From assembly GCF_013315695.1 (NCBI RefSeq), contig NZ_CP054361.1: a DNA stretch of 2,113 nucleotides, one strand, 5' to 3'. A model generated the notes under the pieces. It made no database searches, was not told where the DNA came from, and saw only the letters and a program-made list of their open reading frames with translations. Position 1 is the stretch's first letter; each line of letters starts with the position of its first letter. A program made the position numbers and the translations under genes. This stretch comes from Escherichia coli (lineage in GTDB: Bacteria; Pseudomonadota; Gammaproteobacteria; Enterobacterales; Enterobacteriaceae). Positions 594-1,960 of this stretch are shown piece after piece.

Positions 594-620
594 CAGGGTT
601 TTGTTTTTATTCCCTGTTTT
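594..620 (+). terminator. Weak hairpin plus T-run (CAGGG-N13-CCCTG-TTTT); possible intrinsic terminator or third hairpin of a structured origin
   Basis: 5-bp stem 594-598 / 612-616 with a T-rich 13-nt loop, followed by TTTT at 617-620. The short stem and long loop make this weak. Confidence 0.2.
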
Positions 621-801
621 GGTGATCGGGTGTGTGGAAAAGGTTGGGGTAAGCCGTTCGGGGGTGCTTGTTTTGGGGGGTTAAAATTGTGGTTATTTTT
701 TGCGCAATTCTCGCGCGTGATCCTTGTATTTATACTTAAGGGATAAATGGCGGATATGAAATAGTGGTTTAGCCCAGTAATGACGAGGCTTTGAGTGGGT
801 T

Positions 802-830
802 TTGACAGGTCAAAGAAAATGGAGCAGAAT
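802..830 (+). promoter_or_regulatory. Candidate sigma70-type promoter: TTGACA (802-807) - 17 bp - CAGAAT (825-830)
   Basis: Perfect -35 hexamer embedded in the palindrome TTTGACAGGTCAAA (801-814). The -10 match is only 4/6 but keeps the conserved A2 and T6. It would place the 850-877 hairpin in the rep leader. By-eye prediction only. Confidence 0.2.
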
Positions 831-849
831 TGAGGCGTTTTTAATCGGC

Positions 850-877
850 GTTGGGGAGTGCGTCAACACTCCCCAAC
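850..877. repeat. 11-bp perfect inverted repeat (GTTGGGGAGTG / CACTCCCCAAC) with 6-nt loop CGTCAA; candidate origin or operator hairpin
   Basis: 850-860 is the exact reverse complement of 867-877. The stem is GC-rich and lies about 120 bp upstream of the rep start. No T-run follows it on either strand, so it is not a typical intrinsic terminator. Confidence 0.85.
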
Positions 878-917: not shown

Positions 918-982
918 GTACTGGCTCGCAATGCACAGGTACGTGATGAATATACCACATCAAATCACAGCCTGCCCAGATC

Positions 983-994: not shown

Positions 995-1960
995 ATGTCA
1001 GAAGATAAATTCCTTTCGGACTACAGCCCCCGTGATGCAGTTTGGGATACCCAGCGCACGCTTACCGATTCTGTCGGGGGTATCTACCAGACTGCTGCTG
1101 AATTCGAGCGCTATGCACTCCGTATGGCCTCCTGTAGCGGTTTGTTACGTTTTGGTTGGTCTACCATCATGGAAACCGGAGAAACGCGCCTACGGCTTCG
1201 TAGTGCGCAATTTTGCCGTGTCCGTCATTGCCCTGTCTGCCAGTGGAGAAGAACCCTCATGTGGCAAGCCCGTTTTTATCAGGCTCTACCGAAAATCGTT
1301 GTGGATTACCCGTCTTCCCGATGGTTGTTTCTGACGTTAACTGTCAGGAACTGCGAGATAGGTGAACTTGGAACAGTCCTTACAGCAATGAATGCGGCGT
1401 TTAAGCGAATGGAAAAGCGAAAGGAGCTATCACCTGTTCAGGGGTGGATCAGGGCTACGGAGGTGACGCGAGGTAAGGATGGCAGCGCACATCCGCATTT
1501 TCACTGTCTGCTGATGGTGCAACCTTCTTGGTTTAAAGGGAAGAACTACGTTAAGCACGAACGTTGGGTAGAACTCTGGCGCGATTGCTTGCGGGTGAAC
1601 TATGAGCCGAATATCGATATTCGGGCAGTAAAAACTAAGACAGGTGAGGTTGTGGCCAACGTTGCCGAGCAACTGCAAAGCGCGGTTGCTGAAACGCTGA
1701 AATACTCCGTTAAACCGGAAGATATGGCAAACGATCCTGAGTGGTTTCTTGAGCTGACGCGGCAGCTTCACAAGCGCCGTTTTATCTCGACCGGTGGGGC
1801 GCTAAAAAACGTCCTCCAGTTGGATCGAGAAACCAATGAGGATCTTGTCATTGCCGACGATGTAGGGGATGGCACTGATGACGGGAAGCGGACGGCGTTT
1901 GTCTGGGATTCAGGTAAACGGCGTTACAAACGCGCCCCTGAGAAGGATAAATCGGATTAA
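995..1960 (+). CDS. rep: Rolling-circle replication initiator protein, Rep_1 (pC194/pUB110) HUH endonuclease family, 321 aa
   Basis: ATG at 995 is the first start after an in-frame TGA at 944-946, with GGAG at 983-986 eight nt upstream. Translation shows CRVRHCPVC (aa 74-82, nt 1214-1240), FLTLT (aa 112-116, nt 1328-1342), HUH motif HPHFH (aa 166-170, nt 1490-1504), WVELWRD (aa 191-197) and ETLKYSVK with Glu233/Tyr237 (Tyr codon 1703-1705). Motif order and spacing match my recollection of pC194 RepA and pUB110 RepU (FLTLT, HPHFH, CPVC and KYSxK motifs). No search was run. Confidence 0.93.
   Translation: MSEDKFLSDYSPRDAVWDTQRTLTDSVGGIYQTAAEFERYALRMASCSGLLRFGWSTIMETGETRLRLRSAQFCRVRHCPVCQWRRTLMWQARFYQALPKIVVDYPSSRWLFLTLTVRNCEIGELGTVLTAMNAAFKRMEKRKELSPVQGWIRATEVTRGKDGSAHPHFHCLLMVQPSWFKGKNYVKHERWVELWRDCLRVNYEPNIDIRAVKTKTGEVVANVAEQLQSAVAETLKYSVKPEDMANDPEWFLELTRQLHKRRFISTGGALKNVLQLDRETNEDLVIADDVGDGTDDGKRTAFVWDSGKRRYKRAPEKDKSD

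Follow-up and report, generated by a model that had tools for sequence, protein, structure and literature searches.

A GT-rich tract with G-runs in a pKYM-type plasmid is probably a fast-evolving linker between two replication origins

The window analysed here, a stretch of 2,113 nt from Escherichia coli (NCBI RefSeq assembly GCF_013315695.1, contig NZ_CP054361.1), is a complete small plasmid, which is 100% identical to dozens of 2113-bp plasmids of E. coli and Klebsiella and of which at least 80% is covered by each of 211 plasmid records. It shares 99.5% identity over its full length with pKYM from Shigella sonnei (NC_001378.1, 2083 bp, Col(BS512)), from which it differs by additional copies of a 12-nt repeat (2113 versus 2083 bp). 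Window coordinates are offset from those of pKYM by 296, and the region 621-720 corresponds to pKYM nt 325-424, with the GT-rich tract proper (621-700) at pKYM nt 325-404. The sole long open reading frame, repK (995-1960, plus strand), annotated as 'protein rep' in NC_001378.1, encodes a rolling-circle initiator of the Pfam Rep_1 family (PF01446; E = 1.3e-88, 297 bits against a cutoff of 33) and lies beside the origin. The GC skew of the plus strand is positive across most of the plasmid. pKYM is a known plasmid, and nothing about its initiator family, nick core or phage-like lagging-strand origin is of a new kind.

A homologue of the minus-strand origin of filamentous phages, identified by blastn, multiple alignment and ssDNA folding, occupies approximately positions 470-628 of the plus strand. 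In blastn searches against phages, positions ~470-607 matched PEar1 (83% identity), IKe (77%) and f1/M13/fd (76%, phage positions 5625-5749) in viral-strand orientation, and the matching stem-loops are labelled 'minus-strand origin stem loop' in the IKe record. Multiple alignment prolongs this homology to TTTTGGTGATCG (617-628), which is common to IKe and PEar1. As ssDNA, the origin block is predicted to form two stable hairpins (471-527 and 553-587) and a small one (593-617), with a folding z-score of -4.85 and a stability matched by none of 100 shuffles. Judged by its homology to the phage ori(-) hairpins and its two stable predicted hairpins, 470-628 is classified as an Ff/IKe-type single-strand (lagging-strand) origin on the plus strand, and its viral-strand orientation implies that the plus strand would be the one displaced in rolling-circle replication. 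ATTCCCT (609-615, plus strand), which aligns with CGCCCT of f1, is the putative template site at which the RNA primer would start. The fd primer, pppAGGGCGAAAAACCGUCUAUCAGGGCG..., is the reverse complement of f1 ...GACGGTTTTTCGCCCT; by analogy, the pKYM primer would begin near T615 of ATTCCCT and proceed leftward into the hairpin at 553-587.

On the opposite side of the tract, similarity to a plasmid of E. tarda, the closest Rep relative, with a Rep of the same type and a common nick core, downstream origin and rep promoter, resumes at approximately position 693 and marks the left edge of plus-origin conservation (693-710, plus strand). This edge is followed by the nick core TCGCGCGYGATCCTTGTATTTATACTTAAGGGATAA (711-746, plus strand), which is near-identical in 20 plasmids and 16 genome contigs and invariant across Col(BS512), ColpVC and Col(MP18) replicons; a scan of viral contigs for the core yielded no match. 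Positions 704-746 share 92-97% identity with many otherwise unrelated small enterobacterial plasmids, and immediately to the right of 746 the sequence splits by Rep type. The conserved nick core that characterizes Rep_1 double-strand origins is thus present at 711-746 but not at 621-692. A putative nick site lies after G726 in CTTG, by analogy with the consensus CTTG/ATA of the pC194 family. Positions 747-877 (plus strand), which comprise the Rep-type-specific portion of the plus-origin together with the rep control region, show ~88% conservation relative to the E. tarda plasmid and include a predicted rep promoter (802-830, plus strand; promoter scan) and a perfect palindrome (850-877, plus strand; inverted repeat I3 of an inverted-repeat scan). 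In PMC4439123, citing Yasukawa 1997, the pKYM plus-origin is described as a 173-bp region consisting of a RepK-binding core and a downstream, HU-bound enhancer. Two short palindromes that an initial sequence-only reading had listed together with the GT-rich tract are present at exactly the positions given, TTGCGCAA at 700-707 and CGCGCG at 712-717; however, both are part of the plus-origin and hence of another feature, and only CGCGCG, which lies inside the invariant nick core, is conserved there. At the place of TTGCGCAA, relatives including ColpVC show TCAAGCAAA, TTGAGCAAA, TTGCTCAAA or CTGCGCGG, so its palindromy is not conserved. By chance alone, a 2.1-kb sequence should hold approximately 8 perfect 8-mer and 33 perfect 6-mer palindromes, and TTGCGCAA is a chance palindrome.

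The two origins are separated by a GT-rich, C- and A-poor, non-coding linker (approximately 608-692, plus strand), which is marked by its composition, its absence of predicted structure and its poor conservation. The region 621-700 had been described as almost devoid of C on the plus strand, and this is accurate (A12 C5 G34 T29), as are the positions reported for its four G-tracts: GGG at 628-630, GGGG at 646-649, GGGGG at 660-664 and GGGGGG at 675-680, separated by loops of 15, 10 and 10 nt. The G+T content of the plasmid is maximal in the 80-nt segments starting at 596-615 (64/80), a value reached by only 5 of 2000 dinucleotide-preserving shuffles (mean 55.6, sd 2.0). The GT strand asymmetry therefore exceeds chance, and the impression of an unusual composition was justified. 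The clustering of the G-runs is not beyond chance, as four runs of at least three G within 60 nt occurred in 1240 of the 2000 shuffles and at 42.5% G an 80-nt sequence should contain ~3.5 such runs (80 x 0.575 x 0.425^3). The G-tracts are thus accounted for by a G content of ~42%, together with length slippage as in any homopolymer. Folding of the tract as ssDNA gave an empty centroid on both strands and energies indistinguishable from those of shuffled sequences (minus strand: -3.1 kcal/mol, z = -0.19). A permissive Rfam scan returned two chance-level matches, both off the tract (mir-5736 at 540-603, E = 0.11, and STnc310 at 799-849, E = 0.48), and consensus scans identified no promoter or terminator within 621-720. 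Chi sites are absent from both strands. Inspection by eye of positions 600-720 for IHF and DnaA-box consensus sequences found a single DnaA-like match (7/9, minus strand), judged to be due to chance. The literature consulted on RepK, ColpVC and sso/M13 contains nothing on the GT tract.

Within the intergenic region, conservation is lowest in the tract. Between the window and the E. tarda plasmid, the sso hairpin is ~95% and the dso ~88% identical, whereas the tract can hardly be aligned and contains indels of 22 and 56 nt; in the E. tarda plasmid it lacks G-runs, with CGTG and TTGCC in place of the G5 and G6 tracts. The G-tracts are likewise absent from a close variant spacer. Substitution density across 22 close family members is highest in the tract (23.5 per 100 nt, compared with 3.3 in repK), which is partly due to a few divergent members, and the longer G-tracts vary in length within the pKYM family (G6, 4-7 nt; G5, 4-5 nt). 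Spacers between sso and dso gathered from plasmid, genome and metagenome collections fell into 25 sequence clusters and ranged from 12 to 449 nt in length. The sequence-only reading had itself named the lack of a shared G-tract pattern in relatives as a refuting outcome; the pattern is missing in the E. tarda homolog and in most spacer lineages, so that this is essentially what is observed, and only GT-richness recurs. Its suggestion of a protein-binding site is likewise not supported, given the low conservation of the tract relative to the rest of the intergenic region.

We consider it probable that positions ~608-692 constitute a fast-evolving, non-coding and unpaired linker between the two replication origins of pKYM, and that no specific information resides in its sequence, its length or its G-tracts. 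According to the model we propose, RepK, as a Rep_1 initiator, would nick the plus strand within the invariant core (711-746), and one round of leading-strand synthesis would displace the plus strand as ssDNA. The phage-type minus-strand origin (470-628), located just upstream, would then fold into its hairpins, which, by homology with Ff and IKe, host RNA polymerase would be expected to recognize, synthesizing a primer for the complementary strand leftward from near 609-615. The tract would be the piece of the displaced strand that extends from the primer start to the plus-origin, presumably coated with SSB and merely keeping the two origins apart. As it consists almost exclusively of G and T, it has no means of self-pairing and would remain single-stranded, and both its sequence and its length would be free to drift. 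The earlier suggestion of a strand-specific ssDNA element therefore agrees with this model insofar as the tract lies on the strand that would become single-stranded; however, a discrete element is not apparent, and a G4-aware folding model contains no quadruplex. Observations that fit less well with a passive linker include a GT excess (75-80%) that is too extreme for strand-wide mutation pressure alone, and family polymorphisms without clear strand asymmetry (C>T 10 versus G>A 4; A>G 12 versus T>C 16).

The same polymorphisms bear on the related explanation that the tract is a pure mutational footprint without even a spacer role, i.e. unconstrained, unpaired displaced-strand DNA that gathers C-to-T and A-to-G deaminations. 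The positive GC skew of the plus strand, the GT-rich spacers with hardly any C-runs in many lineages, the unpaired state of the tract in the predicted ssDNA fold, in which the flanking hairpins are protected, and the excess of C>T over G>A are all consistent with such a footprint, but A>G changes do not exceed T>C changes and 42% G is too high to result from loss of C alone. Furthermore, the same strand is far less biased elsewhere: G+T amounts to 59% at four-fold degenerate sites (mean of seven rep genes) and 55-58% in other non-coding DNA of the plasmid, compared with 75-80% in the linker, and strand-wide mutation pressure is therefore insufficient on its own. We regard a purely mutational origin as rather unlikely. 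If the tract is read on the minus strand, it could represent a Rho-utilisation (rut) site, with a leftward transcript across the plus-origin being terminated by Rho at the origin hairpins beyond. The minus strand of 621-700 (C34 G5 A29 T12; 42% C, 6% G) is predicted to be unstructured and has the properties of the ~70-80 nt of C-rich, G-poor, unstructured RNA that make up a rut site, and very stable, pause-prone hairpins follow in the leftward direction. A leftward promoter-like site that matches the consensus (978->949, TGGGCA-18-TATATT, TG-extended) is conserved in the E. tarda plasmid, and no obvious intrinsic terminator lies between it and the tract. The leftward transcript into the tract and its benefit to the plasmid are nevertheless hypothetical, the minus strand of the E. 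tarda homolog is not rut-like (C18 G14 per 80 nt), and the 12-45-nt spacers of relatives are too short to accommodate a rut site, which makes this explanation quite unlikely. The tract directly adjoins the nick core and might also be an accessory part of the plus-origin, such as a RepK- or HU-binding site or a bending site upstream of the nick; alternating T/A-tracts and G-tracts could bend DNA, and motifs combining a T-run with a G-run occur just upstream of the core in the unrelated lineages L020, L026, L036 and L088. Against such a function, the tract is the part least conserved between pKYM and the E. tarda plasmid despite their common Rep type, nick core and downstream origin, the centres of the G-tracts are 18.5, 14.5 and 15.5 nt apart and show no helical phasing, and in some functional relatives the spacer measures 12 nt or the sequence at this place is AT-rich. 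In PMC4439123, the enhancer and HU site of pKYM are placed downstream of the core. An accessory origin element is thus very unlikely.

The four G-tracts could alternatively form a long-loop G-quadruplex on the displaced plus strand, acting on the priming or completion of the lagging strand or on origin melting. The G4Hunter score (25-nt segments) reaches its plasmid maximum within the tract (1.80 at position 656), and close family members keep all four tracts at lengths of at least three. The caution, voiced at the outset, that the tracts are too far apart for a canonical G-quadruplex was well founded, given loops of 15, 10 and 10 nt: regex scans found no motif with loops of up to 7 or up to 12 nt, and the long-loop prediction that had been recommended gave a four-tract match (628-680) only if loops of up to 16 nt were permitted. 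The energy model likewise yielded no quadruplex, the G4-aware MFE (ViennaRNA gquad, DNA parameters) remaining unchanged at -2.7 kcal/mol and loops of 15+10+10 nt amounting to ~+6 kcal/mol. In contrast, the homologous spacer of ColpVC/pVCM01 contains the canonical motif GGGTGTAAGTGGGTGGGGTTGGG with a predicted fold of -7.4 to -16.3 kcal/mol (-16.3 kcal/mol for pVCM01), although this motif is broken in L062, L069 and L091. Composition-matched shuffles of the pKYM spacer form a G4 in 23% of cases, whereas the real spacer does not, and a G4 is part of the MFE in 2 of 12 non-coding spacer clusters, compared with 1.22 +/- 0.99 expected from composition-matched shuffles. As G4 counts match those expected from composition, the G-tracts are a consequence of G-richness rather than an arrangement selected for quadruplex formation. 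Together with the loss of the tracts from the E. tarda homolog and the close variant spacer, these results make a functional quadruplex highly improbable. Finally, an ORF with a GTG start (630-746, 38 aa) crosses the tract and could encode a small hydrophobic peptide, in which case the GT-richness would stem from Gly, Val, Phe, Leu and Trp codons, and a small conserved hydrophobic ORF is present just upstream of the core in L011, L012 and L014. However, the ORF has no ATG, and in ColpVC homologs of the same spacer its frame is closed 63 nt upstream of the core. Family members differ by non-triplet indels and by the length of homopolymers, and the C-terminal third of the peptide merely translates the invariant nick core. 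The frame across the tract is thus not conserved in homologs, in agreement with the hint of the sequence-only reading that the composition is unusual for coding DNA; a coding role is effectively refuted, and the peptide is scarcely credible.

While neither the sequence nor the G-tracts of the linker are shared among lineages, its GT-rich composition recurs. Relative to their own plasmids, the 80 nt ahead of the nick core are GT-rich (z > 1.5) in 13 of 23 independent clusters, with a mean z of 1.4, and across lineages the spacers commonly contain G-runs and almost never C-runs; several lineages (L034, L048, L082 and L109) show no GT bias. This recurrence in independent lineages hints at some selected property. 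Deamination of the single strand, selection against pairing, or a combination of the two may account for the bias. A more far-reaching idea is that GT-richness between the phage-type sso and the nick site is a selected trait of enterobacterial rolling-circle plasmids and IKe-like phages, which might serve as a platform for positioning SSB or RNA polymerase, as a G-run or G4 brake in finishing the complementary strand, or as a site of Rho loading that insulates the origins, with pKYM as an extreme case and ColpVC as one with a true G4. We consider this unlikely. If the bias were selected, it would point to an unrecognized requirement for lagging-strand initiation or origin insulation in very common cryptic plasmids, which the present evidence does not demand.

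A fast-evolving spacer being the most likely explanation, rather than a G-quadruplex or a protein-binding site, the finding is an ordinary one, and as the origins and the initiator of pKYM were characterized decades ago, a compositional oddity in a variable linker between them matters little. Two by-products of the analysis are a map of the intergenic region, consisting of the phage-type minus-strand origin (470-628), the linker (608-692) and the invariant nick core (711-746), and the recurrence of GT-rich linkers upstream of the nick site in many small enterobacterial rolling-circle plasmids.

Compared with known systems, the tract belongs to none of the element families considered. It shares with canonical intramolecular G-quadruplexes (four tracts of at least three G, loops of 1-7 nt) the presence of four tracts of 3-6 G on one strand and a G4Hunter score of 1.8, but differs in its loops, in the absence of a G4 from the energy model and in its lack of conservation and of enrichment over composition; neither the motif nor a favoured fold nor conservation or enrichment was found. 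The rut regions of Rho-dependent terminators resemble the tract in having a C-rich, G-poor, unstructured strand (here the minus strand) with hairpins, a fit by composition only, as this composition is not common to the closest Rep relative. With respect to the plus-origin of pKYM as described in PMC4439123, the tract lies upstream of the conserved core and outside both core and enhancer. The flanking DNA resembles that of the filamentous phages f1/M13/fd and IKe, whose minus-strand origin (hairpins [B] and [C]) is primed by host RNA polymerase, a rifampicin-sensitive synthesis by the sigma-70 holoenzyme on SSB-coated ssDNA; positions 470-628 are 76-83% identical to this origin and share its orientation and its hairpins. 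This homology ends at ~628 and thus includes only the first 8 nt of the region 621-720. In f1, the two origins are nearly contiguous and, unlike in pKYM, no GT-rich linker separates them, whereas IKe has its own G-rich, C-poor spacer of ~92 nt (C14 G35) ahead of the viral-strand origin, like the linker of pKYM.

The leader of the Rep_1 initiator gene repK contains a promoter-like site on the minus strand (window 949-978; TGGGCA-18-TATATT with a TG extension), which is directed leftward and could drive an antisense copy-control RNA. Conservation of this site extends to the E. tarda plasmid, which carries the closest relative of the Rep protein. Furthermore, a perfect 11-bp palindrome (GTTGGGGAGTG/CACTCCCCAAC) is located at 850-877, between the predicted rep promoter (802-830) and the leftward promoter-like site.

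At 194-243, the window contains a perfect tandem repeat of a 12-nt unit (GCATTATCCTCA, 4.2 copies), which is bracketed by the arms of a perfect 15-nt inverted repeat (184-198 and 261-275). Plasmids of the pKYM family have sizes of 2089, 2101, 2113 and 2125 bp and thus differ by increments of 12 nt, which is consistent with copy-number variation of the GCATTATCCTCA repeat.

Two segments of the plasmid are shared with other replicons. The 37 nt at 260-296 are 100% identical to sequences of conjugative plasmids of ~31-38 kb, usually at two sites per plasmid; in the single IncX4 plasmid examined, the match lies in an unannotated gap directly downstream of the replication genes. In addition, the 70 nt at 356-425 share 97% identity with the 5.9-kb Yersinia pestis plasmid NC_002144.1. 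GC skew is negative nowhere in the plasmid except at 126-425, and the location of this segment within that part suggests a mosaic insertion.

Exact copies of the nick core, the invariant part of the plus origin (711-746), were also identified on enterobacterial-type small-plasmid sequences in assemblies of unrelated taxa, including several genome contigs, among others those of Rhodosalinus (L029, L031) and Legionella feeleii (L034). A further contig of this kind, from the Streptococcus hillyeri genome (L039), carries a near-exact copy of the pKYM single-strand origin (sso), spacer and nick region. Contamination in the laboratory or from reagents, rather than host range, may account for these occurrences. 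The duplicated spacer of one metagenome contig (L099) contains a Nextera adapter (CTGTCTCTTATACACATCTCCGAGCCCACG) within one copy and is an assembly artefact, not a biological feature.

In pVCM01 (L018) and other ColpVC plasmids, the displaced strand carries a canonical G-quadruplex motif (GGGTGTAAGTGGGTGGGGTTGGG), which precedes the nick core by ~50-75 nt. The motif is predicted to fold with -7.4 to -16.3 kcal/mol and is retained in most, though not all, ColpVC variants.

Three small-plasmid sequences, CP057249.1 (L020) and contigs of Ca. Pantoea haifensis (L032, in which the extract starts within the left arm) and Kluyvera sichuanensis (L038), encode an IKe-like viral-strand origin hairpin (GAGTCCACTNTGTTTAATAGTGGACTCTTGTTGCA) ~100-270 nt upstream of a pKYM-type Rep_1 nick core. 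As both elements reside on the same molecule, a phage plus-origin remnant thus adjoins the plasmid plus-origin. In two metagenome contigs (L127, L135), a 45-nt spacer rich in G-runs (including GGGTGATCGGGGGTCAAAATCGGGGGTTTT) connects an Ff-type single-strand origin to a downstream pC194-like nick sequence (CTTCTCTTGATAATA), and therefore the pKYM-like arrangement of sso and linker is coupled to a different type of nick site.
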